64,000 nt of DNA from positions 40,721 through 104,720 of the IMG/VR virus record IMGVR_UViG_3300025724_000001; one strand, 5' to 3'. The number at the start of each line of letters is the position of its first letter. Positions within the stretch are counted from its first letter, which is position 1. Shown here piece by piece: positions 4,837 through 34,753 of this stretch. Both the position numbers and the translations under genes were made by a program. The notes below the pieces were generated by a model. It searched no databases. It saw nothing but the letters and a program-made list of their open reading frames with translations, and was not told the origin of the DNA. This DNA comes from a virus. Taxonomy: Duplodnaviria > Caudoviricetes.

Positions 4837-7800
4837 ATGCAAAAACATAGAATACATACAGATATTGGCCGAGATCATAAAATAACTGTACAGATTTCTA
4901 GCACGTATGATTTAATGGAGATATTATCTCTTAAATTTTCTCAAAAAGACATATATGCCTCTGGAAAATGTTCAGATTATGGTGTTGTTGTGGGTCGAGT
5001 CACAGCTAATAGTGGTTTTGGAATACCAAATGCTAAAGTTTCAATTTTTGTGCCTTTATCTGAAATGGATGAAAATGATCCAGTAATTTCTGCTCTTTAT
5101 CCATATAAAGATATTAATGATAAAGATGTTAATGGGTATCGATATAATTTATTACCACAAAGAAAACAACATGGGGGACATGCACCAACAGGTACCTTTA
5201 TGGATCAACAAGATATTTTAACACGAGAAGAATGTCTTGAAGTTTTTGAAAAATATTACAATTATACGGTAAAAACAAATGATTCTGGTGATTTTATGAT
5301 ATGGGGTGTTCCGATCGGGACACAGGTTTTACATATTGACATTGATTTGTCCGATATGGGTTGTTTTTCCTTGAGACCATATGACTTTATAAAAAAAGGA
5401 TATGCTACTGATGATTTTGACAGAGTATATGCATTTAAATCAAGTTCTGATATAGATAGTTTACCACAAATTATAACATTTGATAAAACAATAGATGTTT
5501 ATCCATTTTGGGGGAATGAGGAATTGTGTGAGATTGGTATTACTAGGACGGATTTTGATTTATCTGAAAGAAATATAAAAATAGATCCAGTTGCTTTAAT
5601 ACTCGTTTCAACTATAACGGACGATACTAATGACGCTGTTAAGAGAAATGGGAGAATTAAAAAGAAATCCGGATATAAGTGTAATTTACAAACAATACCG
5701 GGTACTGTTGAGTGTGTTCGTTTTACTGGTAAGTCTGTAATAGGATCAGATGGAATAACAGAGTATCCGGAACTCGAATATTTAAACATAACGGACACAA
5801 TTAATGATGATGGCGTGGTAATGATAGCATTACCAATGAATTTAGATTATATATACACGAATGAATTCGGTGAACAAGAAATAACAAACGATTCAAGTAA
5901 AGGAATACCAACATCGTCTATTGCAAGATTTAGATTTGACTTGGATTTTAATACATATAAACATGCAACGGCAAAATATCTTGTTCCAAATATTCGAGAA
6001 TTTAATCCAAATAATAATGGAACGTCTAATGGTGTTTTAAGTGACAGTGCATTAAGATATGGTGTTCAGTATAGTGAAGGGATGCTGGCAACATACACCT
6101 TTTCGGATGTGTTTGAAGATTATATAAATGTCGTTCCACCAATATCAGGAATGACATTAAGTGATTTAAACTATGATACGGATGTAAAGGAACACAAAAA
6201 AGATTTAATGCTGGGCACGAACAACACACTTAGTCCCGGATCTCCTGAAGATTATTTTTATAAGTTCATTTCAAATAAAGTATATACTGTTTCGTCATTT
6301 CAAGGTACTCATTATGAAACGGCAAAAATACGAGACGCATTTTTAGGGATTAAAGAAATACAACCGAATGTTGAAGATGATTGTGCATCAAACACGAATT
6401 ATTTTCCAACGAATTTTGCGTTTAAGAATCGAACGAAATTTACATTATTATTATCACAAGTTTTATTATTCATACAATTTATTTTTTCTGTAATAACAGT
6501 AAAATTTGCCGAAATTATTGGAAGAATAGCTTATAGTATTGGAAGAACATTTTTAAGTATCAATATTATGGGTGCTAAAGTTTTTCCAAAAGTTGGTCAA
6601 CAACTTATTGATTTTTCTTATAGAACACAAGATAAATATACACAACAATTACCATTAACAATTTATCCTGATTGTGAGGAATGTACGGCTGATGATGAAA
6701 CATTAATTCAAGAATGGACATCATTTAGCGATAGATATTGTCGAATAGCGGAGGTTAAGTTTAAAGTTAACGTAACTCCTATTATGGTAGAATTATCAGC
6801 AACGGTAGATCAATTACAAACAAGTGGTTCTACGGAACCTGGTGCCAATTTTTATTCGGTATCACCTAATGTGTTTTCTAGTTTATTGAGTGTGAATGTA
6901 TATGATTCGTTTTATGGTGATTCTGCTCGGCAAAATACGGATTTGTGCTCGGGAACAACAGAAATGCATTACACACAATTAAGTGATTTACATAATATAA
7001 CACTACCATCATCAAATGAACCGAGGTATGGCGCTGAAGTATATTCGTGGTCGTCAAATGTTACTGGAACAACAATAACTGGAATGACAAGTTTTAGTTC
7101 GTTTAGTGGATATTTTAAACCGATAAATAGTAATGAGCCCGAAAATATTGTGATACTTTCACTACCCATGGCTGCTATGTATGTTTATTTTAGTAAAGAA
7201 GTATGGAATGAGTTAACTGGGATGGATTTTATCCATAATCCAGAACTTGAAGATGAAATATATGATTTATATGCTGTTATTAGAATATATGATAGGGCTT
7301 TAGTTTCTGAGGAATTTCCGATTACTGGCGAAACAATAAATGTTGAAGTTGGATGTCAAAAATATGATAAATTATATAATGAAAATATAATGTTTCAATA
7401 TTTGTGGACAAATGATCCGGCTTTAGGTTATAATCCTTCATTACCAATTTTACCACCTAATTATTCAGATGATACCGGATTTAATGAAAATCGTAATATG
7501 CCGTCAACACATCCGTATTTAGTTTCAACGATAATAGGTACAAATAGTACTAGACGATTACCATTTATGCATGATTTTACGAGGTATTCAAAAAGACGAA
7601 ATATTGGTATTCAATACTATGATAGAAAAACCAAATCTGGCTTAAGTGAATTTAGAGACGGATTATTTACAATAATACCCGTCATTCAGGGTAAGAGTTA
7701 CAATTTAAAGGCTATTCAAGAATGGTATAGAAGAAAAAGAGTCGGTTTAACGTTTTGTGGTGGTGTTATTAATTATTCATTTATTGATAATTGGATTCAT

Positions 7801-9945
7801 GGTTTACTTTATTTCTTTAAATTCCATAAAAGAATTAGGTGGGATGATGAAAATAATTATGATTTAAATCAACGAGGATCAAAATATCCAAAAGAGCTTG
7901 TTTTTTATAATATTAGAGAAAAAGAGTTTTATTATAGATGTTGTCCTTATGTTTATGTAAACGAACAAGGAATTTTTACAGGACAAACATATATTCATGA
8001 TGGACATAATGTACAGGAAATATTACACCCAACAACATTTTTTGATCTTGGTGTTCGAGATGAATTTTTATCTGAAATATGTACTGAAGCAATATTTGAT
8101 CCGACATGTTCTGTGGTAAGAGATATAACATCAACATCATATCAAGATCCGGGGGGTATTGTTGAACATGCAATTAATTACCGATTAGATACTACTGGTG
8201 CGAAATTTAAAGTTGATGATTTTTTTAGTAACACTCATTATGGTTCAAATATAAAAGTTTTTGATGGTGATGTTACACAATTATTATCAATTAATTGTGA
8301 AACGGGAATAGAAGCTTTTGATACAGATAGTCCACATTATTCAATGTACAATGGTGAGTATATGGATCCAGAATCACCAGAATTTGATAATTATTTTTGT
8401 TTTGGTTCATTGTTCGGGCCCACACCGATAGATTTTAAATTTGATTTTAATGGAAAACGTATAAGATTATGTTTGAATTATAGGCTGGGTGATTTTACTC
8501 AAATTGTACCGTTTTATTTGTGGAATAAAAAAGGTGAGGGGTTTGGTCAATATGGGAATGATTCTGATAAACAAACATGGGATAGGACACAAATAGCCTC
8601 AATGCCATTACAACGAATATTTTCTATAAGTGATGTATCTGGTACTACAACAAATTATCTTATGGCGGACGGAGAAGAAGAATATCTTCTTAAACCGATG
8701 ACTATAACCCATAACACATTTAGTATGACAGGTGCCACAGAAGATATGTTAGAAAGATTTGAGGTAATTAGTTTAGAACCACCAAGCGATTTGAATAATA
8801 CTATTGGATTTATTGAGGGTGATTTGTGGTTACAAGTTTTAACTTATAGCGGAAGTGATTATCGAAAAGATCCGATAACTGGTATAATATATGTCGTTGT
8901 TAATAAAATGTGGGTACCACAATTCAATAACATTTATGAAGATAATTACAGAGAGAATTTTATACCTCAAACAGCATTGAATTATAGTGGTGAAAAACAA
9001 GTTCTTTCAACACCATTTTTATTTTATTTTGGTTTAAGGCCGGGCAAAACAGCACTCGATCTTCTAATAAAATCATTTGGTGATAGTGATGCGTTTATTT
9101 CGGATGAATTTGATGAATGCATTATTTCTGATATAATAACACCTACACCACCACCAACACCATCAATTTCGACACCTATACCATCAATTTCGATTCCAAT
9201 ACCTTCAGCTTCACTTCCTACACCATCATCACTGCCACCTGATTATGTTACAGTTAATATATTAAATAATGCGTCATCATCACTATCAATATCTGAATTA
9301 TGGATTGGTGGAGAACAACAGCATCCGGATCCACCATCACCAGATTTCCCATATTATCCTGGTGATAGTGGTGTGTTAATGTATTATGGTGGTGGGAGAT
9401 ACACAATTGTGGTGGTTATAAATGGGGTATATACAATACCATCATATTTGTCATTAGTCGATAGTAGTGGTGATGTCATTAATACGACTATAACTAATGA
9501 AGCATCTTTCCCATATAGTATTGTTCATTATGGTAGATTAGTAGTTAGTTCTGCACCTGTCACAATATCACTTAATGATGGTTATCAACCAGTACCATCA
9601 CCAACACGAACACCATCAATAACAGTATCACGCTCATCTGGCGCGCCACCACCCTCGCCGACACCAACAGTAACACCGACTCCGACACCTATTAGTGGGT
9701 ATATATATGAGGTTATATCTTATGGTTGTTATGATGGTACTAATTGTGATCCACCATCAATGGAAACAGAATATATTATAAATGAAAATCCTTTAGATGA
9801 AGGAATGTATTATAAAGACGGTATTGAACAAAAAGTTTATTATATAATAAAAGAAGAAAGTGGTTTTTTAAATCCTAAAGTTACACATATTTCTGGATTT
9901 GGATATTCATCGTGTAATGGGGCTTGTCAAGAATTACCTGATTAA
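4837..9945 (+). CDS. Large virion (baseplate-associated) protein with internal hydrophobic segment, P/T/S linkers and appended C-terminal domains
   Basis: 1702 aa; GVVVGRV...GIPNAKVSIF beta-sandwich-like start; hydrophobic helix followed by YPDCEEC; baseplate context. Confidence 0.7.
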   Translation: MQKHRIHTDIGRDHKITVQISSTYDLMEILSLKFSQKDIYASGKCSDYGVVVGRVTANSGFGIPNAKVSIFVPLSEMDENDPVISALYPYKDINDKDVNGYRYNLLPQRKQHGGHAPTGTFMDQQDILTREECLEVFEKYYNYTVKTNDSGDFMIWGVPIGTQVLHIDIDLSDMGCFSLRPYDFIKKGYATDDFDRVYAFKSSSDIDSLPQIITFDKTIDVYPFWGNEELCEIGITRTDFDLSERNIKIDPVALILVSTITDDTNDAVKRNGRIKKKSGYKCNLQTIPGTVECVRFTGKSVIGSDGITEYPELEYLNITDTINDDGVVMIALPMNLDYIYTNEFGEQEITNDSSKGIPTSSIARFRFDLDFNTYKHATAKYLVPNIREFNPNNNGTSNGVLSDSALRYGVQYSEGMLATYTFSDVFEDYINVVPPISGMTLSDLNYDTDVKEHKKDLMLGTNNTLSPGSPEDYFYKFISNKVYTVSSFQGTHYETAKIRDAFLGIKEIQPNVEDDCASNTNYFPTNFAFKNRTKFTLLLSQVLLFIQFIFSVITVKFAEIIGRIAYSIGRTFLSINIMGAKVFPKVGQQLIDFSYRTQDKYTQQLPLTIYPDCEECTADDETLIQEWTSFSDRYCRIAEVKFKVNVTPIMVELSATVDQLQTSGSTEPGANFYSVSPNVFSSLLSVNVYDSFYGDSARQNTDLCSGTTEMHYTQLSDLHNITLPSSNEPRYGAEVYSWSSNVTGTTITGMTSFSSFSGYFKPINSNEPENIVILSLPMAAMYVYFSKEVWNELTGMDFIHNPELEDEIYDLYAVIRIYDRALVSEEFPITGETINVEVGCQKYDKLYNENIMFQYLWTNDPALGYNPSLPILPPNYSDDTGFNENRNMPSTHPYLVSTIIGTNSTRRLPFMHDFTRYSKRRNIGIQYYDRKTKSGLSEFRDGLFTIIPVIQGKSYNLKAIQEWYRRKRVGLTFCGGVINYSFIDNWIHGLLYFFKFHKRIRWDDENNYDLNQRGSKYPKELVFYNIREKEFYYRCCPYVYVNEQGIFTGQTYIHDGHNVQEILHPTTFFDLGVRDEFLSEICTEAIFDPTCSVVRDITSTSYQDPGGIVEHAINYRLDTTGAKFKVDDFFSNTHYGSNIKVFDGDVTQLLSINCETGIEAFDTDSPHYSMYNGEYMDPESPEFDNYFCFGSLFGPTPIDFKFDFNGKRIRLCLNYRLGDFTQIVPFYLWNKKGEGFGQYGNDSDKQTWDRTQIASMPLQRIFSISDVSGTTTNYLMADGEEEYLLKPMTITHNTFSMTGATEDMLERFEVISLEPPSDLNNTIGFIEGDLWLQVLTYSGSDYRKDPITGIIYVVVNKMWVPQFNNIYEDNYRENFIPQTALNYSGEKQVLSTPFLFYFGLRPGKTALDLLIKSFGDSDAFISDEFDECIISDIITPTPPPTPSISTPIPSISIPIPSASLPTPSSLPPDYVTVNILNNASSSLSISELWIGGEQQHPDPPSPDFPYYPGDSGVLMYYGGGRYTIVVVINGVYTIPSYLSLVDSSGDVINTTITNEASFPYSIVHYGRLVVSSAPVTISLNDGYQPVPSPTRTPSITVSRSSGAPPPSPTPTVTPTPTPISGYIYEVISYGCYDGTNCDPPSMETEYIINENPLDEGMYYKDGIEQKVYYIIKEESGFLNPKVTHISGFGYSSCNGACQELPD

Positions 9946-9954
9946 ATTATGTAA

Positions 9955-12900
9955 ATGAAGAAAAAGAAGATCATATTACCAAAGCTAAGGTATGAAAACG
10001 CACCTGAAACAGATAGTCAAATTTCGATTGGATTCGAGTCTGATAAATCTCTTTTGAGAGGGGATGATAGGGATGTTGTTTTAAACTTATCTGAACAATT
10101 TACAGAAGAACGTGCAAATTGTAAACGATATAAGTTATATGGTAAGATGAGAATGGTTTTTAGAAACCTATATGCTGGTGCAACATCATATGATTATTTA
10201 CGTGAAAGATTATCCTTAGTTAGTGATGGGTCGGATAATAATTTCTGTGGTTATCTACCATATAACGAATTTGCGTTTTTAAGAGATGATATATATTATG
10301 AAACCACCGAATCATTGTCGGTTACTTCATTGAGTGGATTTACAGGATTTACCATGGTTACAAGTGGTCCAACTGAACATCAAACAATCACATCAGTTAC
10401 AGCACCATATCACAACTGGAATCTTTATACGAGTTATATTTCGGGTCAAGTTGATAATTTTCCAATGAAATATACATTGTCTGGCCGAACAAAAATTGAG
10501 GGTGAAAATGTTATAACATTTACTAGTGGTGATGGTATACCATTTAGGGTTGAAGAGACTGAAATACATTATGTTTTAACAAGTCCGGTACGACATGGAA
10601 TTAGTCGGGGTGAATACATCTTGATTGATGGAAGGTATTATTATGTGAATTCAGTTGGTGACAACATATTTGATTCTGAACATTATGTTATTAATATATT
10701 AAAATCACAGTTAAGTGGTGTTACTTTTAATCCGTTAGTTATTGGAAAACGTTGTATAGACATTAAAGATACTGAAAATTCCACGTCAAAATATTATGTA
10801 CATAAACATACAATATTAACATCATTGGGTGATTGTATTATTGATAAAGTAGGATTTGAATCACCAATTTGGGAAGACGAGAAAAAAGTTTTATATGAAA
10901 ATAGTGTGGGGGATAATGATGTTCTTGTTGTTCGAAATAGGATGGAAGCCGTGTTATTTGATTCATTGGAACCGTTTATTTTAACTGGAATAACAAATAA
11001 TTTAGGCCACACACCGATAGAACTTTATACTACAATTATTTTTAGAAATGGAAACGGATATTTCGAATATCCACCAAAAGTTGGTTATTCGTTTCATATG
11101 CATGATTCATGGATAGATGAACATTTTGATGGTTCAAATTCAATTGAAACTGGGTTAACGTCAACGTCATTTACAAGAGAAGGTTTTGTATATCCATTTT
11201 TTTCTGGAAATTCATTATCTAAAGGTTCAGAATTATATGGGGCGTTTGTTGAATATAATCCGAAGGAATTAAAAGAAAGAATAATATCAGAATCTTACCA
11301 TAAAATTGTTAGTAATAAAAATATTTTTAATCATGGCCAAGATCTTGATGAGGTATTTTCTGGTGCAAGTGAAACGAATCAAATTGGACTTCTATATCAA
11401 CCACATCATAGATTTAAGTTAAAGGAATTATCACCTTATATTGAAATAGCCGATGATAGTACACCAATATATAATCTTCCAGAAAACGCAAAGTATTTTC
11501 CTAATGAAAAACTTTGGAGGTGGCGAGATGTATATGAAGACGGATATATTGATCCAGATGGTTATGGTGTAGATCATCCATATTTAAATAATATTCATTT
11601 TGTACATAAAGATATTAATTTTTATATAAGAAACGAAAAAATTTATAAAAATAAAAAAGATGGGGTTATTAATTTTTATAGGAGAAAGGATGTTGATGAA
11701 TGTGTTGACGATTCGGTAATTATTAAACGTGGAGACGCCGAAATACCCGAACCATCTATATCGGTTTCCCCATCAGTGTCGTTAAGTGTAATGCCATCTA
11801 TTACACCTACGCCAACATTATCTGTTAGCATATCTATAACACCATCAATATCGATGTCATCATCTCAAGGTACGTCGTCGACACCGTCACCATCATTGTC
11901 ATTAACAAGAACTCCGTCGGTTACTAGAACACCAACAATAACACGAACACCAACAATATCATTATCTGCAATTCCGAGTCAAACACCGAGTGTAACACCC
12001 ACACAAATTTATCTTCAAATTTATTATATTGATCCGTCTGGTGTGGATGATGCTAGTCGTAGTGGTGGTGTGGGTGAAGAATGGGCAACATTATCATATG
12101 CTACTAGTAGAGTAACAACACCCGGAAGTCTTATATATGTAAATGCAGGAACTTATTATGAAACATCACAAAGTAATTTATCTGCGGGTGTTTCTATTGA
12201 TGGCGCTGGTAGAACATCTTGTATATTAAGTGCAACAACATCTTTATCGTATTTTGTGTATGCCGCAAGTTCTGCTGGAACAAATGGTAATCAATCAATT
12301 TCTAATGTAACGTTTGATTGTAATTTATTGGTTGATCGTGGAGTAAGATTTGCCGGTCGAAGTAATGTAACAGTACACGATTGTGGTATTGATAATGCAA
12401 TTTATTATGGATTAATTTTTTCGGATACAACAAGTAGAAGTGTTCATGTAGAACCAACATACTGGGCGACGAACAATAATATATATAATAATTATCTTGT
12501 TAATTGTGGTGGTGATAGATGGAATACGAATGATTCGTATTGGGAGGCATATGGTGCTATAGATATATCTGGTCAAGATGGAATGTTGATATATAATAAT
12601 AATATCGATAATCAAACTGGTGGTAGATATGCTTATGGTATTAAGGGGTTGAGTTTTGGTGGTTATCATAAAGGATTAAAGATTTATAATAACAAAATAA
12701 GAACAAATATTAGAGATAATGTTGGTGAACAATCATTTGGTTTCAATTTAGAATTATGGACAGGTGTTGGTGGTATTGAAATATATGATAATGATTTGAA
12801 TGGTGCAATTGATATGGGTGGTTATGGTTATTGGGACGACTATTCATATGGATTTGCAATGAAAGTTCATCATAATACTATTATTCAAGATAATTGGCCG

Positions 12901-15900
12901 ACAAATCAACCAGAAACCGGAATAATACTTGAATGTGGCGCAAGAGATGGATGTTATTTTTACAGTAACTGGGTTGAAAAATTCTCTACTGGATTTAGTT
13001 TGGGCACTACTGCAGCATCTTTAATTCAAGGTTTTAATGGTGTTTGGGTTTATTATAATGTATTTTGTAATTTGGGTTATACATCAGGTGGTGCTGGCGC
13101 GGGATTTTATGGTTATAATTTATCTACTGGTGTGACAATTCAGAATTTCAACATATTAAACAACGTCATACATAAAGTAAATAACAGCGGGGGTTTGGGT
13201 ATTGCATATGAATATTCCACACCAAATACATGGGTAAATACAAACATTAAAAATAACATAATATATAATGCATATAGCCCAATTCAGTTTAGAAATCAAA
13301 TAGTAAATAGTGTATATATACATAATAATTTAACATATGGTGCAACAAGAACCATTGATAATTCCACATCATGGGGAAATAGTACAATAATCACCAGAGA
13401 AATATTAAATAATCAAGAAGGTGTAGATCCGTTATTTACTTTGGTTGGAACTGATTTTACACTTACAAGTAATAGTCCTTGCATAAATACTGGTGTAGAT
13501 GTAGGATTAATTGAAGATTTTACTGGACAACCGGTTAGTAGTCCACCAGAGATTGGGGCTTATGAATATGTGGTTGTTGTTTCACAAACACCAACAATCA
13601 CACCAAGTATTTCTATTAGTAAAACACCGACTAGGACACCAAGTTTATCTGTGTCAAGAACACCTACTATATCATTGTCCAATACTCCGAGTATAACAAT
13701 TAGTAGAACGCCAACTATAACGCCAACTATAACACCAACTACAACACCAAGCATAACAATAAGTGTTACTCCAAGTAGTACTATTTTGACTGCACGATAT
13801 GTTTCAAGTAGTGGAGATGATTCAAATGATGGATTAACCGAATCAACACCTTGGAGAACAATAACTAAGGTTAATAACGAGTTTTCTTCTTTATCGCCAG
13901 GAACTGGTATTTTATTTAAACGAGGTGATGTATTTTATGGTACATTAACTATTGGTAGATCAGGCACATTGGGTAATCCAATAACGATAGGCTCATATGG
14001 TACTGGTTTTAAACCAATTATAGAAGGGTTTACAACGCTTAATTCATGGACGAGGGTTGGTACATCGTCAATATTTTATGCGTCAGCATCATTTAATATT
14101 AATCCAAATGTAGGACCACTAGTAACTATAGATGGTATGATAATAGAAAAGGGAAAATATCCAAATATGGGGTATAATACAATTTCAACAGTAGTAACAA
14201 GTCCTGCACCACCGATTGGCAGTCCAGTGACGATTACTGATTCTTCTTTATCATCAACACCTAATTGGACGGGAGCTGAAATTGTTATAAGATATGATAG
14301 ATGGACATTAATTAGATCTATTATTACCGATCATTCTGGAACATCATTAACGTTTAACACACCGTATGCTAATTTACCATATACTGGATGGGGATATTTT
14401 ATACAAAATCATATTGACACATTAAATGAATTGGGTGATTGGTATTATGATTCTGTGAATCAAAGGATATATATGCATTTTGGTTCAGGAACACCTGGGG
14501 AACATATTATACGGGCAACAACATTAGATCATACTGTTTATAATAATGGTTATTTAAGAAGGTTTATTATAATTGATGGTATTCATTTTAGAGGTACAGC
14601 TGGAGATAATATTCATATATGGAATAATGTATCAAATATAGATATTAAAAAATGTCGAATAGAATATTCTGGTGGTAATGCTATCTATCAACATGGTGGT
14701 AGTGGTAGTATGATTGATAATAATGACATTTTATTTTCTAGTCATAATGCTGTTCATATATTATTCCCAAATACTACAACAATAATCAATAATAGAATTT
14801 ATTATACAGGACATTATCTTGGATATACTACCACTGGAGATACAGCTTGTTTTGTTGGAATTAAATGTGGATCATCATCTAATGGTAATAATCTCATTGA
14901 GAATAATAAAATATATAATACGGGTTATTTACCAATTAATTTTGGTGGTGCGGGTAGTATTGTTAGGAGAAATTATATACACACATATTGTTATAATAAA
15001 GATGATGGGGCGGGAATTTACATATTTAATGACAGATCAGGTGGGAAGTTAGTTGAAGAGAATATAGTATTAAATGCTGTTGGTGCTGGTGCAGGTACAA
15101 ATAATCCTAATTCATCATCAGCGAATGGATTATATACTGATGGTGGAACTGCAAATGTTACATTTATAAGAAATATTGTTGGAAATGTAACCAGACAAGG
15201 TTATCATGGAAATCTTCCCGTAAATGTTACTTTAACAGGAAATACGTTCTTCCAATGTAGAGAATTAATGGGTTTATGGAAATTTGGTAATGCAGGATTT
15301 TGGGATGGAACTGGCACATTTATTACAGGATTAAATATTCAACATAATAAGTTTATTTCTACAGATCTTAATAGAAATTTAGCAAAGGGTATATTTTATG
15401 AAAATTCTACAACTGAGTTAAATGGTGCTGACATCTACGATGAAATAGAACGTTTGGGCGTTTGGAATAATAACTACTATTATACTAATGAAGAGTGTTT
15501 TGTATATATAGCACATAATTTATATCAAACAAACGCACCATATAATCTAGAAAGATGGAAAAGTGATTTTGGACAAGATCTAAATTCAAGTGTGGTTGTT
15601 AGTGAAAATCAATATACATTAAATTCTATAGGTCCTAATTTGATTACAAATGGAACATTTACTTCTGGTATAACGGGTTGGACGGCTTCTTCATCAGATT
15701 TAACTCTTGACTGGTATTCACCAGGAATTGGCGATGGGGGTGCTTTAAGTTTAACAAGTACACAAAATAATTTTTATTATTGGTGGTGGAATAATATTAA
15801 TGCTGCTGTAGCACATATTATTGGGGGTGTCGTGAATAATTCAAAACATTATTTATTACGTTTTCTTGGTAGAAGTACAATTAATAACAAAACATTATCA

Positions 15901-20257: not shown

Positions 20258-21073
20258 ATGGATATATTAAAAAGTAAATCGAATAGAAATATCCTTATTA
20301 GTGAGGAAACGAGGTTTGGGATTGACCTTGGATGGGAAGAGAATTTTCAAGAATTTGAACGTGAAACATTAAAATCTATTATAAACCCAATAGATAATTT
20401 TGAAACTGTTCGTTATATTCATAATGAATATATTGGTATAAGTGGAATATCTCAAAATGATATTTGGTATCATTTTTATTTTTTTAATAGTGATAATCCA
20501 CCAACATATTTTGGTGGTTTAAATTATGAGTATGTCGGGTTATCTCCTGAACAAAACTCAATAATAACAAAGTCGGAAAACACTAGTTTTTTTAGCCTTG
20601 AATTTTATAAAGCACCGAGTGGTGAAATTATTGATAGTAATAATAGGAAATTAGTTTTCACAAAACACCTACCAATTCCATTAGGTGAAAAAGTGTTTTA
20701 TACACCAATAGGTCGGGAGATTTATTTACCAATTTTTACTGGAAACAATTATAGAAATAAAGAAAATATGTTTTTATTCTGGTTTCAAGATGATACAGTT
20801 TTGAAGGGTTCGATTTATAAAGGTGATACTTTTTACGTAACAGCAAAATATTATAATGCTATAGATGGTACGATATTAAGTTTTTTGAATTCACCTAAAT
20901 CATATTATGATATTGTAAATGAATCTACAGACATTTATCATAGAATGGTGGTAGATAAAAATGATTATTCGTATATTGTTTATTCTGGAAATACTAGTGA
21001 AGAAAGAATAGGTTTAGACAATCAACCAGTATCATTTTATGCCTACGGATATTACACAAAATCTTTAATATAA
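20258..21073 (+). CDS. Putative structural protein
   Basis: 271-aa ORF inside the tail/baseplate operon. Confidence 0.6.
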   Translation: MDILKSKSNRNILISEETRFGIDLGWEENFQEFERETLKSIINPIDNFETVRYIHNEYIGISGISQNDIWYHFYFFNSDNPPTYFGGLNYEYVGLSPEQNSIITKSENTSFFSLEFYKAPSGEIIDSNNRKLVFTKHLPIPLGEKVFYTPIGREIYLPIFTGNNYRNKENMFLFWFQDDTVLKGSIYKGDTFYVTAKYYNAIDGTILSFLNSPKSYYDIVNESTDIYHRMVVDKNDYSYIVYSGNTSEERIGLDNQPVSFYAYGYYTKSLI

Positions 21074-22216: not shown

Positions 22217-23149
22217 ATGGCAATTGGATCTTATGGGACAATAAGGGCGGCTGACGTATCGCCAGAAGATGTAGAAATTTTATATCATTTTACACCCGAT
22301 AGAAAAACTAGTTCACCTGTTACATTAAGAACATTGAACGCAACGTCAATTTTAACACCTGTTTTTCATAATGCAGAAACGGCATTATCATCTGAATCTG
22401 ATCGGCCACCTGTTGCAGATGTGGAAATTCTAGGTGGTATGTATAATTTAAAATTAGAGTCCGAAGATTTTTCTGATTTGGGATACTATACATTACATTT
22501 AAGACCAAAACAAATCAGAACTATTATTAGCGATTGTGGTGTGTTGGCATCATTACCATCGGTTAGGGGTCTTATAATTGATATGTCTAATGTTGTTACG
22601 TCAGATAGAAATAAATTTTCACCACAAAATCTTGTTGGTTATCGTATAGAATATATTAATCCAACAGATAATAAAAAAATTCCTAATTTTTATCGAATGA
22701 TAACATCGAATTTTTATTGTGAACCAATTACAACTAATTTGGTAAATACAAGTCAAAAAGCTATTCGGTATAGGTATTCTGATAATGCAACGAATCTGAT
22801 GTTTTTAACAATAACACCAAGCGCAGCTCCATCGACAAGACCGACAACAGTACCGTATATTGGCCAACCAAATCAAACGATTATTATATCTAATACATAT
22901 TTTAATCCGACAACGATTGAAATTGAGATGGTTGAACATGATATTTCAACGTTGGCGTATGCTCTTTATGGTAATCAGAGCAAGGCCATGTCAAGTGGTA
23001 TTTACACCATTTATGATAAGGATAATAATATTTATAAACAATTTAATTTATACGAAATTAAAGACGAATTTAATGAAACATTATATGAAATTAGAGAAAA
23101 AAGAGATGATATTGATGAATCATTAAATTTTGATACAATTACAGAATAA
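22217..23149 (+). CDS. Putative structural protein
   Basis: 310 aa, preceded by TATTTAT, coupled to the next gene by TAATG overlap. Confidence 0.6.
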   Translation: MAIGSYGTIRAADVSPEDVEILYHFTPDRKTSSPVTLRTLNATSILTPVFHNAETALSSESDRPPVADVEILGGMYNLKLESEDFSDLGYYTLHLRPKQIRTIISDCGVLASLPSVRGLIIDMSNVVTSDRNKFSPQNLVGYRIEYINPTDNKKIPNFYRMITSNFYCEPITTNLVNTSQKAIRYRYSDNATNLMFLTITPSAAPSTRPTTVPYIGQPNQTIIISNTYFNPTTIEIEMVEHDISTLAYALYGNQSKAMSSGIYTIYDKDNNIYKQFNLYEIKDEFNETLYEIREKRDDIDESLNFDTITE

Positions 23150-26100: not shown

Positions 26101-29100
26101 CCAACAATTGTGGGTGATGAAAGTGGCAATAGTATGCCGGCATATATACAATTTAATTGTGATGAACCCATTAATGTTCTTCCGATGCAATCTGAATGTA
26201 GTTATTCGATTACTGGTTTTAGTGAGACAAGTTCACATGAATTAATTTTATCAGATGCGGCAAACACCGAAGTTCACTTGAAAATTAACGGATTACAATA
26301 CGTTGTTACAGACTGGACGGATACTTTGAGTGGATTTACGGCGTGGCCAAAAGTTGAATATCGGCCAAGTTATGATTACGGACTAAAAAAAGGTACATAT
26401 GTGTTAAAGGTGAATGGTGGTGGTGTACCTACTACATACCAAGAACTTGAAGTAGCGATAAGTAATGGTAATATTATCGAAGAGTTAGTTGAAAATATTG
26501 TGAGCGGTGATACATTATTATCAATGACATTAAAATCCGCGTCAGAACTTACCGCGTCACAGTTTCAACTAGCCCCTGTTAATGGTTATCAATTTGCTTT
26601 TGACTATCGTTTTGTTAGTATTGAAAATATTGTATGTTTTAGCTCAATTAAAACGTATTTAATTAATAATAAATTTAAGGTTTTACCAACAAGTAAAGTT
26701 TTGGTTTATAGTGTAATCGAATGTGTTCGTCCATCGTTTCTTTTTAAATATCCCGAAGATTTGTACGTAGAAGTAAGTGGTTCAACAAGCGCAGAATATT
26801 TGATTACTGAAACAGGCTTTCCAATTAAAGTAACATCAGTTGAATTTACTAATTGTGATGTTCATGACATTTATTATCAATTAAATACACACGAAGATAC
26901 GAGTAATGTTGTGTTATTTGATGGTATGTTAACTGGTGATGATAAAATAATTGTATCGTATGTTAAAGAAGATATCACCATTTTTGATTTTCAATTACGT
27001 CAGTACTGTATAGATTCTGCTCGTGGTGTTGATGAGGACCATCCATTAAATACTTTAACAAATAGACCATCAACGTTTACTGGGTGGTGTTATAATGGCA
27101 TTCCACCAACACCTTCAGCAACTCCAGTAATAAGTCCGTCAAATACACCGATGGTGACTAGAACACCAACTACAACACCCGTAATAGTTTCATCTACTTT
27201 ATCAGTAACGAGCACACCAAGTGCATCACTAGTTCTTTCAGCAACACCAACGGTAACACCTAGTGTTACGTTTAGTGGTGTTCCATCTATCACGCCAAGT
27301 ATTTCGGTTAGTAGAACGCCAACAATAACACCTAGTGTTACGTTTAGTGGTGTTCCATCCGTCACGCCAAGTATTTCGGTTAGTAGAACGCCAACAATAA
27401 CACCTAGTATTTCGGTTAGTAGAACGCCAACAATAACACCTAGTATTTCGGTTAGTAGAACGCCAACTATATCAGTATCGAATACTCCTGGTGTATCTAT
27501 AACACCATCAATAAGTGTTAGTCCTAGTATTTCAGTTAGTAGAACACCAACCAGAACACCTAGTATTTCAGTTAGTAGAACACCAACACCTACTATTAGT
27601 GTTTCATTATCGCAAGTACCATCTGTCACGCCTAGTATTTCAATTAGTAGAACACCAACAAGGACACCAAGTATAACAATTAGTAGAACACCGAGTGCGA
27701 CAATACCGATGTACACTGCTTGTGGTACATATAGTTTAGGGTTAAATGGTGTTAGTGGTGGTTCTTTTTTAAGTGCTGGTATATTAACTGGCACAACAAC
27801 ACCAAGTGATTATGTTATTGAATGGAGAATGAATTCGACTTCAGGAACTGTAGTCTTTACGACGGGTTCACGTTATGAATATGATGCTACAATTCAAAGA
27901 GAACATCCATTTGTTGATGAAATTGTCGAGTCAGGAACGTTATATCCGGTGATAAGAAAGATATTAATTGGTGGATACACCTATACACCAACTTATGAAT
28001 CCGGAAATAGATTAAGTTCGGATTTATTAACTTGCTTACCATCAGTGGTTATTACACCAATAACATGTGATAGTACATATGGTGTTGATCCAGATAATGT
28101 TTATCCGTTTAATTTAATTTATGAAAACAAAAATGATGGTGGATTAAATAAATCAAGAATATTCACATATCAATTATATAATGATACCAAATATATGGCG
28201 GTTGAATTTTTTGGTTTTGAAGTTTCTGAACAATTAAAAATATATTATTGTACAACAAACAATCCAAATGGAACTTTAATTGAAAATTGGGTTCATGGTT
28301 TATATTATACGGGTAGTACTCATTTAACTACTTATGTGTATTTAAGAACATCAATTTATAGTGGTATGTCTTGGAATGGTGGTGGTTTGTATCCAGTTAA
28401 TTATCCAACAAATCCTCGAATTGCATATATAAATTATTCAAATTGTAATCCATTAAGATTTGTTTTTAAAATGACAGATTTTACGTGGACTAACGGTGAT
28501 TATTTAAAATTTGAAATTATTGGTAGTGTATTTGAACCAGACAAAATAAACACGAACTGGAGACTTAGACTTGATTGTGTTGACGAACTTGATGTGTTGT
28601 CATGTGATTATAATCTTAGTAGTGATGTAAATAAAATAAATTCAACACCGGTAATGGTTTATTCGGGAGATCCTGAATGTAATTATATTGTTTATTATAA
28701 CACGTTATCAGGTTATACATTACCAGACAGAACGAACCCAAATACTCCATGGATGCATAGATACATAACATCTAATATTCTTTCATCTGGAAATTCTATA
28801 GGTGGGTTTGAAAATACACAAATTGGAATATTATGTCCTTGGAAAATATCATCTGCCTATTCTTTAGTAATATATAACACAGGATATAATACCTGTATGA
28901 ATATGGCTGCGGGGCAAACAATTACAATCACAAAAGACACAACATCAATAACATTTACATTTAGTGACATTGCTGACTTTAATGATGCACAAAGTGATTA
29001 TTCACAAATAACTGGTTCTACAGAATGGGCAACATGGGCTTCATATCCCGATACGAATGTGAGTTATTATGGTTATTATAGAATAATGTCGAGAATAGCT

Positions 29101-30855
29101 TCGTCATGTGGTGATGACTATGTTGATATTGATTGGTGTTTCTTTAGAACAGCACCTGTAGTGTTTAATTCAGTTAATAAAACAATGAATATTGTGTTTG
29201 TAATTCCAACAAACAATATAACACCAACACAATGTGATAATAGTTATCAGATGGTTAATTCTGTAATAACTATGTTAACACAGACAAAAAATAGAGTTAT
29301 ACCTACCGGATTAAATGTTACATCTTGTAGGTATGAAGGGCTTTTAATAGCATATCGTCTTACTAAAATTACATCACAAACAAATCCAACAGCACGCCGT
29401 TATAGAATAACAACAATAGAAGATGTGTTTGTAAATGGTTTATGTGATTTGTCAAATTATGGTTTTTGTAAGGGTATTGACACTGGTTATCCGACAGCTT
29501 GGGTGATGTATAAATTTTATGATAGAATTAGATTTGGTGATGTTTCCACACATGAAACACGAATGAATACATGGTGTCTCGATAGGGCTAAGGGATTACG
29601 AACAGATAATTGTAATGATTTTGGTGAAAGTAATTGGGAAACTGTGTATTGTGCATCGGGTTCAACACCATCACCAAGTATAACTCCGAGTGCATCAACA
29701 CCAACACCAAGTGGGGCTGGTGTATATCAATATGATATTGTGACACACACCACACACGCTTCTAGTGATGGTGCTTGTGCGTCTATGAATCTTCCTGATG
29801 ATACAATTTATATGGCAACATCTTCACCCATTATTGGATATTATGCATATAGTGATGCGGCATTGTCGTTTCCTTTCCAAGGTGATCAACGCTGGTATTA
29901 CACAAAAAGTAATACTATTGAATATGCAGTACAAATAATGATTGATGGTTATATAAATGATGTGGTTAATTGTAGTACAACATTACCAACACCATCACCT
30001 ACCATATCTTTAAGTAAAACACCGTTTCCGTCACGATCTATAACACCAACACCATCACCTACGATATCATTTTCTAGAACACCTAGTACGACACCAACAA
30101 AGGCTATTGTTGCTGTAACAAATAATGCTAGCATACCATTGATTGAGAATGTTATGGTAAATGATGGATCAATTTCTTCTAGTGGTTTTCCGTTGAGTTA
30201 TTTAGATACTTTAACAGGAACTACATCAAATTTGGGTTCACAGAATATTGATGTTTATATTTCATATTGGGATGGTGGTTCTAATTATATTAAATTTATT
30301 GATAGCAATAATATTACACATTATAGTTCACTAGTTGGTAGTTCACCATATGGAGAAATAACACACACACTTTCTAGTGTTTATATTTCATTATCTAGGC
30401 CGATTATACTTTCGTTGGAAGATGGAACACCGCCGGCACCTAGTTCTACACCAAGTGTCACAAGAACTATTACACGCACACCAAGTTCTAGTAGTGGTGC
30501 TAGCCCAACACCATCACGAACAGTAACACCAACACCAACACCAAGTCCATTTGGCCCGACAATTAATGTTGTTAATGCCGGAACATACAGTATTACTAAT
30601 ATACAAGTAAATAATATAACAATACCAGATATTAATTTTCCAATTTTATCATCACAGTCAGCCATTGGGCACACAACAGTTTATAGTACTAGTACATCAA
30701 TTACAGTCACATTAAGTCAGGGTTCATTTGGGGAAAGTATAACAGTAAATAATGATTGTCAAGGTACTGATGGTGGTGGTGATTATTCCTTTATAGGTGT
30801 TAATACAACTGTAGGTACAATAACAATTGGTTATATGACAGGGTCATGTCAATAA
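23149..30855 (+). CDS. Large baseplate protein (gp7/P2 gpI-like YKSKGT motif) with S/T/P repeats and appended domains
   Basis: 2568 aa; VPDILLKNLAETLG and LYKSKGTRTAIEFFL motifs typical of wedge-initiator/tail-I-like proteins. Confidence 0.7.
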   Translation: MARYKVPSQAASGADSFSDDLVGRQITEGSSLMTGTNFIIEKTIPERNTKEFRTQPFSDFLTLDDIVDEKHVIEDFDNTKKEIKFNNDKKNADRSLYGSLKQRIRVAINNIISKYPAAIQVNSTFIGGVNYTAENIVYSSQTNTTEFDVPYKLIYNPLEIILKTPKSGILPETDNNIRNFYSSFTKYVIDLTGETFNIISYSEPDSNNRITLRVDGNCFNGYSAFTKNYLIRPTDGIVENFYEQLDDLERVLINRETNPKFTAAFNVPRDSSDGSSTETVTINVNWPISNDGWNISIVGLLFDYYIDKISSLADEVDNYKSNLIVRFLTSPQLYEFDTDDKKIEAVFQIYGRAFDNVKKFIDNIAYMRNVSYDGINNVPDILLKNLAETLGLSTINLFTEKTLEESLYTRHDTQYDGVSLGTNLIEAEYEFYRRILVNLAFLYKSKGTRTAIEFFLKFIGAPEPMIRLDEYVYKVDGSLPSQTIEDDIRNVIQSQVSSSVMTWDENLSGYTLTRFSGETRLTRDKYPVDEDTGFPRGIEYPDGSMFFQKGAGWYKRTLHHRSSEVIDYDNSNLTGRTKVIKTKPAPFTYGEDYFDVYRQLPGLNYGYSLVSNVDNKKIELVDDEAISRLTLNRKNVNVFLSADRAIDYDIYRKSRDLMLNFGVLTPQTGVTFAEFLSNVTNDIISNSHVVKYQNTYDSLLRVYWAYQNQILFTPYNYISVNEFINRLSPYWVDIIEQFIPATTLWLGGNLIENSIFNRSKYKHKRPVGSTAYIEVLYPDFETVIVEDLRTFIGGGTVDNTSYESYFRGLTSFYGVSYTITLEINGTVYSRQTGNLRTFTGFTPTSPCTRLTPTTESIPLICDYVGSTLFSEINAIENMRDEWKDIVNTLVEEISTDENSEYTVTAVFCNTPDNVEYVAFTVTPKDNTRIIESFDYYFTPSYGLYHDETNMEARVEPINTLIFSGDSNCELYTDINILTNIYGYIPTIVGDESGNSMPAYIQFNCDEPINVLPMQSECSYSITGFSETSSHELILSDAANTEVHLKINGLQYVVTDWTDTLSGFTAWPKVEYRPSYDYGLKKGTYVLKVNGGGVPTTYQELEVAISNGNIIEELVENIVSGDTLLSMTLKSASELTASQFQLAPVNGYQFAFDYRFVSIENIVCFSSIKTYLINNKFKVLPTSKVLVYSVIECVRPSFLFKYPEDLYVEVSGSTSAEYLITETGFPIKVTSVEFTNCDVHDIYYQLNTHEDTSNVVLFDGMLTGDDKIIVSYVKEDITIFDFQLRQYCIDSARGVDEDHPLNTLTNRPSTFTGWCYNGIPPTPSATPVISPSNTPMVTRTPTTTPVIVSSTLSVTSTPSASLVLSATPTVTPSVTFSGVPSITPSISVSRTPTITPSVTFSGVPSVTPSISVSRTPTITPSISVSRTPTITPSISVSRTPTISVSNTPGVSITPSISVSPSISVSRTPTRTPSISVSRTPTPTISVSLSQVPSVTPSISISRTPTRTPSITISRTPSATIPMYTACGTYSLGLNGVSGGSFLSAGILTGTTTPSDYVIEWRMNSTSGTVVFTTGSRYEYDATIQREHPFVDEIVESGTLYPVIRKILIGGYTYTPTYESGNRLSSDLLTCLPSVVITPITCDSTYGVDPDNVYPFNLIYENKNDGGLNKSRIFTYQLYNDTKYMAVEFFGFEVSEQLKIYYCTTNNPNGTLIENWVHGLYYTGSTHLTTYVYLRTSIYSGMSWNGGGLYPVNYPTNPRIAYINYSNCNPLRFVFKMTDFTWTNGDYLKFEIIGSVFEPDKINTNWRLRLDCVDELDVLSCDYNLSSDVNKINSTPVMVYSGDPECNYIVYYNTLSGYTLPDRTNPNTPWMHRYITSNILSSGNSIGGFENTQIGILCPWKISSAYSLVIYNTGYNTCMNMAAGQTITITKDTTSITFTFSDIADFNDAQSDYSQITGSTEWATWASYPDTNVSYYGYYRIMSRIASSCGDDYVDIDWCFFRTAPVVFNSVNKTMNIVFVIPTNNITPTQCDNSYQMVNSVITMLTQTKNRVIPTGLNVTSCRYEGLLIAYRLTKITSQTNPTARRYRITTIEDVFVNGLCDLSNYGFCKGIDTGYPTAWVMYKFYDRIRFGDVSTHETRMNTWCLDRAKGLRTDNCNDFGESNWETVYCASGSTPSPSITPSASTPTPSGAGVYQYDIVTHTTHASSDGACASMNLPDDTIYMATSSPIIGYYAYSDAALSFPFQGDQRWYYTKSNTIEYAVQIMIDGYINDVVNCSTTLPTPSPTISLSKTPFPSRSITPTPSPTISFSRTPSTTPTKAIVAVTNNASIPLIENVMVNDGSISSSGFPLSYLDTLTGTTSNLGSQNIDVYISYWDGGSNYIKFIDSNNITHYSSLVGSSPYGEITHTLSSVYISLSRPIILSLEDGTPPAPSSTPSVTRTITRTPSSSSGASPTPSRTVTPTPTPSPFGPTINVVNAGTYSITNIQVNNITIPDINFPILSSQSAIGHTTVYSTSTSITVTLSQGSFGESITVNNDCQGTDGGGDYSFIGVNTTVGTITIGYMTGSCQ
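27255..27700 (+). repeat. S/T/P tandem repeats with a 36-nt unit (PSISVSRTPTIT)
   Basis: Exact or near-exact copies of AGTATTTCGGTTAGTAGAACGCCAACAATAACACCT between about 27298 and 27468. Confidence 0.85.
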
Positions 30856-32732
30856 TGATGAAAAAAATAAAATAAATGGGACAAATTAGAGTCATATTAA
30901 CAGGAATAAGCACATCGAACGATTTTCGAGTATATTACAAACGCGACGATACGGGTTATGGACCATATCCAATAACAGGACCAAGTTGGTTAAATTATCC
31001 GAACGAAATGGATCCTGATGGTATATTTCCTGCTAGTACATCAGTTATTCGGTTATATGAAACAGTTGTCACATTTGATAATGATTATGTTTATTGGATA
31101 AAACTTGAAGATGTTAATGATTCAAAAAGATATCTTATTAAAAACATTAAAATCCATGGTGATAATTTCTGTCCGGATATTCAAGTCACACCAACAGTAA
31201 CACCAACAATATCAATAACACCCACACCATCATCGACACCACAAATGACACCAACACCGTCATTAAGTCCGCAAGCATCACCGACACCATCACCAACTCA
31301 GGGTGTTTCGATAACACCATCACCATCGTTATCTACGACGCCGTCGATTAGTATGTCATTATCACCAACTCGAACACCGTCGGTTTCACAATCAGCAAGT
31401 GTAGATAGTGAAATATATTTTGCATCATTAAGTGGTAATGATGTTGTTATGGGAGTAAACAATGCTCAGGGTAGAACTTTTAATATTAATTTATATTATC
31501 ATTTAACCGCAGAAGTCGATAATAATTGGAGTTGTAATCCTAATATACCAAGTGGAAATGCATTACAGACAACAACGAGAATTCTTGTATCAACTAATGG
31601 TGGTGCAACATGGACAAATAGGGACAGTGTGAGGGCAGAAATACCTGGTGGCGATTGTCAGGATGATTATCAGGAAAAATTTGGATATACGACTATTACA
31701 AATATAACAAACGTATCTCAAGTTAAAGTACGAATAGAGTATGATTGTTATCAAACACAAGATATTAGTAGGGGTACTGGATATGTAACCATATCCTCAG
31801 CAATTGTTGTTAATGGTGGTGGTAATGCTGTAGTGATATGTAATGATGAATTTTCTGCCACATGTGATAATCCAAACGAGCCGGTTAAGATTTTGTGCGG
31901 TGGATTACCACCATCACCAATGCCGTCACCACCGCCACCATCACCAAGTTCAACACCGACAAGGGCGTTAATTGTTGTTGAGAATAACGCTGCTATACCT
32001 TCAATTAGTAATGTTATGGTAAATGATGGGCCAATATCTTCTGGTGGGTTCCCATTGACATATTTAGGAATATTAACTGGATCTACATCAGATTTGGGTT
32101 CACAAAATATTGATATTTATATTACATATTGGGAAGGTGGTTCTAATTATATTAAGTTAACTGATAGTAATAATGTCACATATTATAGTAGTTTGATAGG
32201 AGAAACGCCAGGTGGTGAAATAACACATATAATTCCTAGTATTTATATTTCATTATCCAGACCGGTCAGACTTTCATTGGAAGACGGTACACCACCTTCA
32301 CCAAGCGTCACACCGAGTGTTACAAGAACAGTTACACGTACACCAAGTCCAAGTTTTGGTGCTAGTACTACTCCATCACGAACAGTAACACCAACACCAT
32401 CACCATCACCATTTGGACCAACAGTTATTATATATAATATGGGAACATATAATATTAACGAGGTAACAATAGGTACAATAACAGTTTCGGGAATTAATTT
32501 TCCAATTGTTCCTTCAACTTGGGCTATGGGACATACAACAGTATATAGTACCAACACGGTAGTTGACGTTATGTTAAATCAAGGTTCAATTGGTGAAAGT
32601 GTTTCGGTAAATAATAGTTGTGTAGAAAGTCAAGGAGAAGGTACTTTTACTTTTATTGGTGTTGATACTACTACAGGTCCGGTTACAATAACTTATGCTA
32701 TGGGATCATGTGAATAATGATGAAAAAATAAA
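30103..32732 (+). repeat. Duplicated C-terminal two-domain module (copies at about 30103-30870 and 31965-32732)
   Basis: Colinear proteins NNA.IP.I.NVMVNDG...SLEDGTPP...GPT...GSC; the downstream TAATGATGAAAAAA(A)TAAA is also shared. Confidence 0.85.
30876..32717 (+). CDS. Virion accessory protein with S/T/P linkers and duplicated Ig-like C-terminal module
   Basis: 613 aa; C-terminal ~250 aa paralogous to the end of the preceding gene. Confidence 0.7.
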
Positions 32733-32773
32733 TGTTTATATTTATAAGAATAATAGGAATAACGTAAAAAGAA

Positions 32774-34753
32774 ATGGGGTTTTTAGTTGCAAATGTTTCA
32801 GAAAATTTAGCTGGTCGAATAACGAATAAAGGAAGAAAGAAAATTGCACAGGGCAATTTCAATATTACTTATTTTCAAGTGGGCGATTCTGAATATGACT
32901 ATACACTACCGTTTTATGAATTTAATGGAGATGAAAATCCGGGTCAAAAAGTGTTGATGCCATTTGATAAAGATTCTCAAGTTAAATATCCTTACAAGTA
33001 TAGTGAATCGTCAATAAGTGGGACAACATATGGAACACCAGTACAATCAGTTCAAATGGATAGAATTACAAATTATTTAAGTGCTGTTGGTTTTGTTTCG
33101 GATTATAATGAATCAACGATTAATTCGACATATGAGCCTATAAATATTTCTAGAATAAATGGAAGCAATATTTTGTCTGTTTCAAACGGTACATTATATT
33201 ATAATGTTGAATTTATTACAATATTATTTGGTGATTTAGGAATTGGTGGAACAATATCTGAGAATGTACATTCATCATTAACATATAAGATTATTGATAT
33301 TGTAAATGACAATTTACATTTGGATAGACCGATGCCGAATTTATCATTTTTGTCTGGTGATGTAACTATAGTATCTAACGCTTTATCTTCATTTAATCCG
33401 TGTATAGATCAAGAATATTCATGGGATTTGAATACTGTTTGGAGTAAAACACCAGCTGGGTTGGATCCAGCAATAGTTCCATTAACAACATTCGATAGTA
33501 ATGTTTTTGTATCAGCAAAAGAATATTTTGGATATAATACTTCATCAGGACAAACAGATAACACGTTAACAACAATTACAAATACTTTTGGGAATAAAAT
33601 TATTGTCCCGCCAGAGGAACAACATTCTATTAGTATTTTACACTATTCTAAAGTGGGTGTAGCATCGTTAGACCCTGATTTACCATATAAATATGAAGAT
33701 TACATCGGGCATAATGAGGATGAAACAGAATATTTTGAAATTTATATTCCTTTCATATTATATGATAGAAATACAACCACAACTATTGGTGCAAGATTTT
33801 TTATGGATACTGAAGATTTTTATATAAATTCAACAGCAATAGATACCAGACCAAATCAAATGAAGTTTAGATATTTAATTGACGAACAGGGTGTGAAAGT
33901 TGGTAAAGTTTTTGTAAATCATAAAGTAATTATTTTTGATGATCAAGAAATTGTTGCGGCATTGGATTATAAATCGAATAGGAATTATACATTACCAATA
34001 CCACAAATTTCAACTATTCCAATTGATTCAAAATGTGATGATCATGGAAACTCATTAATTCCATTATTAAGTGGTGGTACTACTGGTCAAACTGTATTTG
34101 TCACATATCTTTTACAACATCAAGCGTCGGGTGATTCACAATTATCTGGTATGTGTTGTAATTACTATTCTAAAATTTCAAATAGTATCGTTGATAGTGA
34201 TGTTTCAATTAAATTTGATACTGATGATTTTCAATTCATGAGGTCAACTTTTTCTGATGTAACAAATGGATATATTGCAGACACTTTCCAAATACTTGTA
34301 CAGGTTGTCAATACGGGTGAGCAGCCAGATCCAACATTATGGAAAATAATTGATTTTACAGATCAGATACCTAACCATACTCCCGGAACATTAATAAATC
34401 CGACAACTCTTCGTGATACACGATTTATTATCACTAGTTATGATTATGAAAATGCTGGATTATATGTTATACCAGAAACACATTTTGGTGATTTTCAATC
34501 ATTTCCGGGTAGCATTAAAGTTGCGAGGGTAACAGATATGGAAGTTATGAGATTTTTGGTGAATTTACCTTCCGGTTATTTTGAAACAACACAGAATCCA
34601 TCATATGATACCACAGCAATACCCGCAATACCAAAAAGAATTACAGAAGTGGCTTTATTAGATGAAAATAAAGACGTACTTGTTATTGCTAAAGCGTCAA
34701 GTCCAATAGAAAAGGTTGGTACAATAGTTTTAGCAGTTCAATTAGATATTTAA
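32774..34753 (+). CDS. Tail-collar/fibre-anchor-like baseplate protein
   Basis: ITNKGRKKIAQGNFNITYFQVGDSE N-terminus and ITEVALLDENKDVLVIAK..SPIEK C-terminus resemble a split tail-fibre attachment domain. Confidence 0.6.
   Translation: MGFLVANVSENLAGRITNKGRKKIAQGNFNITYFQVGDSEYDYTLPFYEFNGDENPGQKVLMPFDKDSQVKYPYKYSESSISGTTYGTPVQSVQMDRITNYLSAVGFVSDYNESTINSTYEPINISRINGSNILSVSNGTLYYNVEFITILFGDLGIGGTISENVHSSLTYKIIDIVNDNLHLDRPMPNLSFLSGDVTIVSNALSSFNPCIDQEYSWDLNTVWSKTPAGLDPAIVPLTTFDSNVFVSAKEYFGYNTSSGQTDNTLTTITNTFGNKIIVPPEEQHSISILHYSKVGVASLDPDLPYKYEDYIGHNEDETEYFEIYIPFILYDRNTTTTIGARFFMDTEDFYINSTAIDTRPNQMKFRYLIDEQGVKVGKVFVNHKVIIFDDQEIVAALDYKSNRNYTLPIPQISTIPIDSKCDDHGNSLIPLLSGGTTGQTVFVTYLLQHQASGDSQLSGMCCNYYSKISNSIVDSDVSIKFDTDDFQFMRSTFSDVTNGYIADTFQILVQVVNTGEQPDPTLWKIIDFTDQIPNHTPGTLINPTTLRDTRFIITSYDYENAGLYVIPETHFGDFQSFPGSIKVARVTDMEVMRFLVNLPSGYFETTQNPSYDTTAIPAIPKRITEVALLDENKDVLVIAKASSPIEKVGTIVLAVQLDI

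Follow-up and report, generated by a model that had tools for sequence, protein, structure and literature searches.

The window analysed here, 64,000 bp in length, covers bases 40,721-104,720 of the linear 104.7-kb virus record IMGVR_UViG_3300025724_000001, for which a completeness of 34% is estimated. In a run of large genes 3' of the baseplate wedge gene, the products repeatedly contain the tetrapeptide motif [S/T]-G-x-T. As judged by sequence comparison, the motif is real and is explained neither by composition nor by fold, and on balance we lean towards reading it as a sequon for phage-encoded O-glycosylation, primed by a glycosyltransferase (GT) of family GT4. The proteins concerned are presumed virion proteins on the basis of gene position and domains.

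The [S/T]-G-x-T motif in the window proteins

Five motif-rich proteins, chosen post hoc (369, 3429, 2568, 659 and 1702 aa), together contain 56 sites, against 12.7-14.6 expected from shuffles of the whole proteins and from local shuffles within 50, 20 or 10 aa (z 11.5-12.5; highest shuffle count 28). No enrichment was found in the remaining structural proteins (9 sites, 6.4-7.1 in shuffles) or in the non-structural proteins (3 sites, 3.6-4.7 in shuffles). The enrichment over composition and the contrast between structural and non-structural proteins, both anticipated by an earlier, sequence-only reading of the window, are upheld. Its counts for the 369-, 659- and 1702-aa proteins and for the wedge, which are those in Table 1, were reproduced, as were 7 of the 11 [ST]G pairs in the core of the 3429-aa protein (its first 590 aa, with 2 more ending in S) and 9 of 20 in the first 1320 aa of the 2568-aa protein. 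For NrdJ, primase, Mre11, Rad50, sigma and Dam its motif count of zero stands, but the number of pairs is 22 and not 16. Its term 'virion-specific' needs narrowing: the motif marks a subset of the presumed virion proteins and not every one, the wedge, tube (0/2), neck and 310- and 613-aa proteins having few sites or none.

In the five proteins and one encoded outside the window, x-T follows SG in 32 of 101 and TG in 32 of 76 cases, whereas the background is 5/60 after NG, 5/60 after DG, 4/59 after GG and 4/28 after AG. With N-G, D-G and G-G at background, the motif does not behave as the generic beta-turn that the same reading had named as an alternative. A scan for three-residue gapped patterns across all structural proteins placed SG.T and TG.T just below the patterns of the Pro/Thr/Ser linkers.

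The full motif is hydrophobic-[S/T]-G-{not P}-T. Proline is absent at x (0.0x), and hydrophobic residues are favoured at position -1, where charged residues fall to 0.2x. S and T interchange freely at the first residue, while the fourth is almost always T and hardly tolerates S (8.3x for [ST]GxT versus 1.5x for [ST]GxS). When [ST]G was kept between homologs, the fourth-residue T was kept in 92-98% of the comparisons, versus 33-52% when G or the first residue was lost. Comparison among homologs shows that the motif is selected as a unit, hydroxyl-specifically and at the protein level. The proteins are rich in S, T and G and the codon preceding Gly is biased to NNT, as might be expected if the signal lay in the DNA or arose from repeats or composition. 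However, this bias is equal at non-motif S/T-G, all synonymous codons for the motif residues are in use, and translation out of frame or of the reverse strand gives background counts, so that the signal resides in the protein. In addition, z stays above 11 under the 10-aa local shuffles, and the effect persists when only distinct contexts are counted. An origin in the DNA, in repeats or in composition is refuted and retains next to no probability.

Turnover of the motif and co-distribution with GT4

The enrichment recurs in relatives: in 80 related loci 26-71% of the [ST]G pairs are followed by x-T (0.26-0.71 per locus), and the wedge family, which served as internal negative control, has none (Table 1). 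Among the homologous open reading frames (ORFs) of these loci, the proportion is 379/1153 for the family of the 1702-aa protein and 560/849 for that of the 3429-aa protein.

Alignments show that the motif arises and disappears as a whole, in variable regions. In 102 homologs of the 369-aa protein the sites are spread over 64 alignment columns, and parsimony counts 238 changes, both numbers being inflated by alignment shifts. In homologs of the 310-aa protein, SGRT (11 of 29) stands at the place of xDRN in the others. Among 39 sheaths, 194 of 259 sites lie within a variable insert at residues 100-300, and none of 116 [ST]G pairs is part of a motif in residues 750-938, which belong to the core aligning to T4 gp18. 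In the capsid protein of the 245-kb relative G001 the sites are internal (residues 134-410 of 576). A control within one fold favours a recognition motif: in a BspA leucine-rich-repeat protein of a GT-positive phage, 16 of 23 repeats carry SG/TG, compared with 3.7% in 120 mostly cellular BspA proteins.

The motif was compared across genomes with repeats damped. Six GT4-positive genomes gave observed/expected ratios for [ST]GxT of 1.7-3.3 and the source contig gave 2.35, versus 1.1-1.4 in six motif-negative and GT-negative genomes (LR756508, Mel-JY01, immuto, RM378, P-SSM2 and T4); the control [ND]GxT gave 0.6-1.4 in all genomes compared. Proteins enriched at P<0.001 numbered 1-13 per GT-positive genome and 0 in the GT-negative ones. 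In a screen of all proteins, GT4 was the only G001 protein strong in all five other positives and absent from the six negatives, with a nucleotidyltransferase and an AAA ATPase as runners-up. A motif-rich protein was found within 10 kb in 70 of 80 loci with GT4, mostly from one clade; GT loci on short contigs without structural genes are not informative on the motif.

The 735-kb phage LR756501 encodes a dozen motif-rich proteins (e.g. 25/46, 17/25 and 15/21), one of which matches residues 1539-1857 of the 2568-aa protein. It has GT4 (540610-541809) at 34% identity and lacks the other two GTs of the cluster, and its capsid, portal and terminase gave no phmmer matches to the clade. The capsid, portal and sheath of the clade recur in the cultured phages Mel-JY01 and immuto, as does a GT trio distinct from the cluster, but the motif and the GT cluster are absent from both. 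The motif is also absent from 80 immuto-like loci, and the GT from one complete genome among them. Taken across genomes, these comparisons show co-distribution of the motif with one phage GT4 (GT-B) family, and the co-occurrence that the sequence-only reading had put forward for testing was borne out across lineages, with phage phi92 as an exception (see below).

The candidate writer in G001 (48266-49480) matches PHROG 7162 at 1e-41. The family profile matches PglA-type, TarM and TreT structures, over the C-terminal part only; its assignment to GT4/GT-B is also supported by Atlas neighbours. Relatives have in common a gene block, conserved at 60-75% identity, that consists of late sigma, GT2, GT4-like, HAD, PhoH, dUTPase and GT4. 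The block ends 3.2 kb upstream of the homolog of a motif-rich 462-aa gene near the left end of the source contig, the first large gene to be complete there, and the GT cluster is therefore expected just off that contig. Leftward extension of the contig was attempted and none was obtained. The earlier suggestion of a modifying GT outside the window thus holds as far as a GT2/GT4/GT4 cluster in relatives, beyond the contig break, is concerned; in the source phage itself no such GT was seen, which we attribute to the incomplete contig. The 462-aa protein (G000:C1:607-1995, same record, outside the window) has 8/15 sites, and where a motif-rich protein is encoded next to the GT4 gene it is usually a homolog of this one.

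Other GTs were considered as writer. The trio at G001 198657/199561/200805 is common to Mel-JY01, immuto and RM378 and was rejected because these phages lack the motif. The GT4-like 44166 and the GT2 43384 of G001 are absent from LR756501 and in many GT loci do not lie within 10 kb, so that they are extenders at most. Two further occurrences of GT4 were recorded: a match with one TAA inside in a 311-kb record (G011:C1:260150-261367), and a phage fragment of the group (GT4, prohead protease, capsid; JAJFLM010000089.1) binned in a Deltaproteobacteria metagenome-assembled genome (MAG). The sole GTDB match is a phage contig within a MAG.

Two observations on other repeated proteins stand apart. 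In G001, about 12 LamG-like proteins lie in a run (148139-162413) that also occurs in immuto and in which the motif is not enriched; this run probably represents mobile cargo that either has yet to be re-tuned or is inaccessible. The large proteins of RM378 (L234-L240) contain 36 [VI]-T-x-S patterns versus 8 expected, possibly repeats or another motif.

Proposed mechanism and alternatives

In the proposed mechanism, the acceptor sequon would be placed on presumed outer virion proteins both in a clade of ~300-kb T4-like myophages and in the unrelated 735-kb lineage. GT4 in the infected cytoplasm would recognise G(+1) and T(+3) and would transfer the first sugar onto Ser/Thr at position 0, which is favoured as acceptor because S and T swap freely there while the fourth residue is nearly always T. 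T(+3) resembles the reading hydroxyl of N-x-S/T and could be an alternative acceptor. The neighbouring GT4 and GT2, both of patchier occurrence, would extend the glycan, and domains of the baseplate, fibre and sheath insert and some of the capsid would end up densely coated with it; a role of this coat in shielding from proteases or grazers, solubility or adhesion is speculation. That tag and GT4 travel together suggests a rule-based sugar coat on the virus. The wider proposal is that huge phages, from the ~300-kb freshwater and sludge myophages to LR756501, run their own sequon-directed O-glycosylation, in which [S/T]-G-x-T is recognised by a soluble GT4 that starts glycans at dozens of positions, and new domains are re-tuned by gaining the tag; we regard it as evenly poised.

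Several results weigh against glycosylation by GT4. Phage phi92 has two distant GT4 homologs (191 and 150 bits), yet the motif is absent. The helicase tree needs at least two motif changes and the LR756501 branch is long and unsure, so that the co-occurrence of motif and GT4 rests on about two independent lineages. No cultured motif carrier was found, and the source contig, 34% complete, gave neither a GT2 match nor a GT4-profile match. The gene neighbours of GT4 (dUTPase, PhoH and HAD, with thymidylate synthase close by in LR756501) would also suit DNA or nucleotide chemistry. The BspA control draws on the repeats of one protein, which are non-independent events and possibly one amplified event.

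The structure model does not favour it either. For the 369-aa protein, an alignment-based AlphaFold monomer with a predicted TM score (pTM) of 0.34 was the one usable model (a single-sequence run reached a predicted local distance difference test score, pLDDT, of 31). On it, loop starts account for 58% of the family sites versus 56% of the background, and both of the sites that are kept most often fall within predicted strands. The surface-loop enrichment that the sequence-only reading had expected is thus not seen; of its surface-modification claim, the selected, hydroxyl-specific motif and the GT genes in relatives remain.

Some conserved sites lie in predicted strands, which would suit a signal for docking without a covalent bond, recognised by a decoration protein, chaperone or assembly factor of phage or host, with the GT link due to shared ancestry and one coincidence. 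Selection as a unit and turnover of sites would be expected of short linear motifs of any kind, and a second AAA ATPase co-occurs in part. We nevertheless consider docking unlikely: both fixed side chains are hydroxyl, x excludes Pro, and the phmmer comparison of capsid, portal and terminase yielded no structural reader common to G001 and LR756501, whereas the GT is common to them. That the motif is modified, but by a different activity (nucleotidyl transfer, phosphorylation, a further phage GT or an enzyme of the host), appears rather unlikely. A Pol-beta-fold nucleotidyltransferase (G001:19994-20776; G003 homolog L119:17791-18867) is common to G001, G002, G003, G009 and LR756501 and absent from the negatives, but it was not found in the motif-positive G006 and G010, both maybe fragments. 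The window itself contains a kinase-like ORF between gp25 and gp6 (PHROG 4301), with homologs in G006 and in Rhodothermus phage RM378; it is absent in close relatives, being missing from 12/12 related gp25-gp6 loci and from G001-G003, and was for that reason rejected as writer. The Flavobacterium phage immuto and the 80 similar loci, all without the motif, speak against a general Bacteroidota host enzyme.

A structural preference, in which a Ser/Thr-Gly turn leads into a beta-strand with a Thr ladder and clade composition amplifies the effect, the targets of the GTs being DNA or the host surface, is quite improbable. Many sites in the 369-aa model do lie at loop-to-strand entries or hairpins, and fold effects can raise G-x-T, as in cellular BspA proteins (0.29 after [ST]G, 0.26 after [ND]G). 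However, the usual hairpin-turn pairs N-G and D-G are at background, the counts for sheath and capsid orthologs in Mel-JY01 and immuto are 0/7, 2/18, 1/12 and 0/8, and enrichment is lacking in P-SSM2, in T4 and in the LamG series of G001. As to a DNA target, phage GTs often modify DNA (PMC12619734), and the neighbours of GT4 belong to nucleotide metabolism. Against this, the near-complete GT-positive genomes contain a single canonical thymidylate synthase, with no second gene of that family and no separate hydroxymethylase paralog. A search for TET/JBP, made without a positive control, found none.

Gene setting and known glycosylation systems

The window belongs to a T4-like myophage, with sheath, tube, neck, gp25 and a gp6-like wedge. 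The stretch was found in further sequencing runs of activated-sludge and digester metagenomes; contigs from RNA libraries span the region, which is no proof of transcription. The large post-wedge proteins (Table 1) contain PKD, LamG and beta-helix domains and Pro/Thr/Ser linkers. Searches of Pfam and PHROG with the 1702-aa protein gave no matches.

Table 1. Features of the window discussed in the text, with [S/T]-G-x-T sites (fractions are of [ST]G pairs)
Feature	Position in window	Strand	Sites and remarks
227-aa ORF, between gp25 and gp6	2248..2931	+	Kinase-like candidate; rejected as motif writer
gp6-like baseplate wedge	2943..4775	+	Internal negative control; 0/5 here, 0/221 in relatives
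1702-aa protein, presumed baseplate, directly 3' of wedge	4837..9945	+	9 sites, all in residues 400-1350
3429-aa protein: N-terminal core, two beta-helix regions, LamG domain, Pro/Thr/Ser linkers	9955..20244	+	22 sites
271-aa protein	20258..21073	+	1 site; homologs 1-7 each; 217/379 in homologous ORFs
369-aa PKD-domain protein	21076..22185	+	6/6 sites; homologs 2-15 at shifting positions
310-aa conserved protein	22217..23149	+	Zero sites in window copy
2568-aa protein	23149..30855	+	15 sites
613-aa protein with Pro/Thr/Ser linkers	30876..32717	+	1/10
659-aa protein	32774..34753	+	4/9; three relatives 14/26, 10/16, 14/18

At least nine mucin-like Pro/Thr/Ser linkers, differing in length between strains, occur within the same large proteins (window 4837-32717); they are possible substrates of a second O-glycosylation activity. 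Collagen-like fibres built of G-[ST]-S triplets are encoded at window 52784-56047 and 56055-63131. The 2358-aa fibre contains 489 [ST]G.S, and this relaxed S-G-x-S form could be a further acceptor or unrelated.

In the general O-glycosylation of Bacteroidota, host-encoded enzymes act on exported proteins at the sequon D-[ST]-[AILVMT]. The likeness to it consists in a short Ser/Thr sequon on many proteins, and a Bacteroidota host is plausible for the window phage. The motif differs, however: D at -1 is depleted to 0.2x, G+1 and T+3 are needed, and immuto, a Flavobacterium phage, is without [ST]GxT. The N-x(not P)-S/T sequon excludes Pro at x, prefers Thr to Ser and has sites that turn over, features which all find a counterpart here. 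The differences are Ser/Thr at position 0, the fixed Gly at +1 and Thr at +3, and a candidate writer that would be a soluble GT4 and not an oligosaccharyltransferase.

Among viruses, mycobacteriophages have their own GTs and are reported to carry glycans at the C-termini of capsid and tail-tube subunits (Freeman et al. 2023, cited in PMC12619734 and PMC12582341). These too are tailed phages with their own GTs, which here were seen in relatives, at the sequence level; the described C-terminal sites contrast with an internal four-residue motif at dozens of sites in many folds, with a tube lacking it. The capsid protein Vp54 of chlorovirus PBCV-1, a eukaryotic virus, is glycosylated independently of the host by several virus-encoded GTs, mainly N-linked and with no common sequence pattern recognised (PMC4691112), whereas in the window phage the pattern itself is the finding. 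As the mycobacteriophage sites are C-terminal, those of the chlorovirus patternless and the glycans here only proposed, we did not assign the window phage to either system. The nearest annotated relatives of the candidate writer are gp163/gp164 of phi92 (PHROG 7162; 27% identity). They are ~70-90 aa shorter and form a separate branch with 100% support, and phi92, a cultured E. coli phage with a four-GT cluster (102200-105376), shows no [ST]GxT enrichment.

Moraphages are aquatic T4-like phages of 200-307 kb with PolB, core GTs, glutamine synthetase and predicted Bacteroidota hosts; the accessible part of their description leaves the GT substrate open and does not describe the motif (PMC12619734). 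By gene content, the relatives G001 and G011 (245 and 311 kb), with PolB, several GTs and glutamine synthetase, resemble them in the features given there; as to heat-shock genes such as the DnaK/DnaJ of moraphages, G001 showed only a ClpB-like ATPase. The motif was not described in the literature searched, which mostly excluded subscription journals.

Phage virion glycosylation is represented by few known cases, without a site rule. If the proposal is true, [S/T]-G-x-T would, to judge from the literature searched, be the first glycosylation sequon to be defined in phages, and a portable four-residue tag. A defined sequon with a named candidate enzyme would allow glycosylation to be predicted from sequence alone in hundreds of uncultured genomes, and would offer a testable role for the core GTs of large aquatic phages. 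The link between sequon and GT4 can be checked with one gene and a peptide, phage culture being unnecessary, and a cytoplasmic enzyme reading a four-residue tag would be useful for glycoengineering. Even with another chemistry, selection of one short motif in virion proteins of unrelated fold and in two distant phage lineages calls for a reader that has yet to be described.

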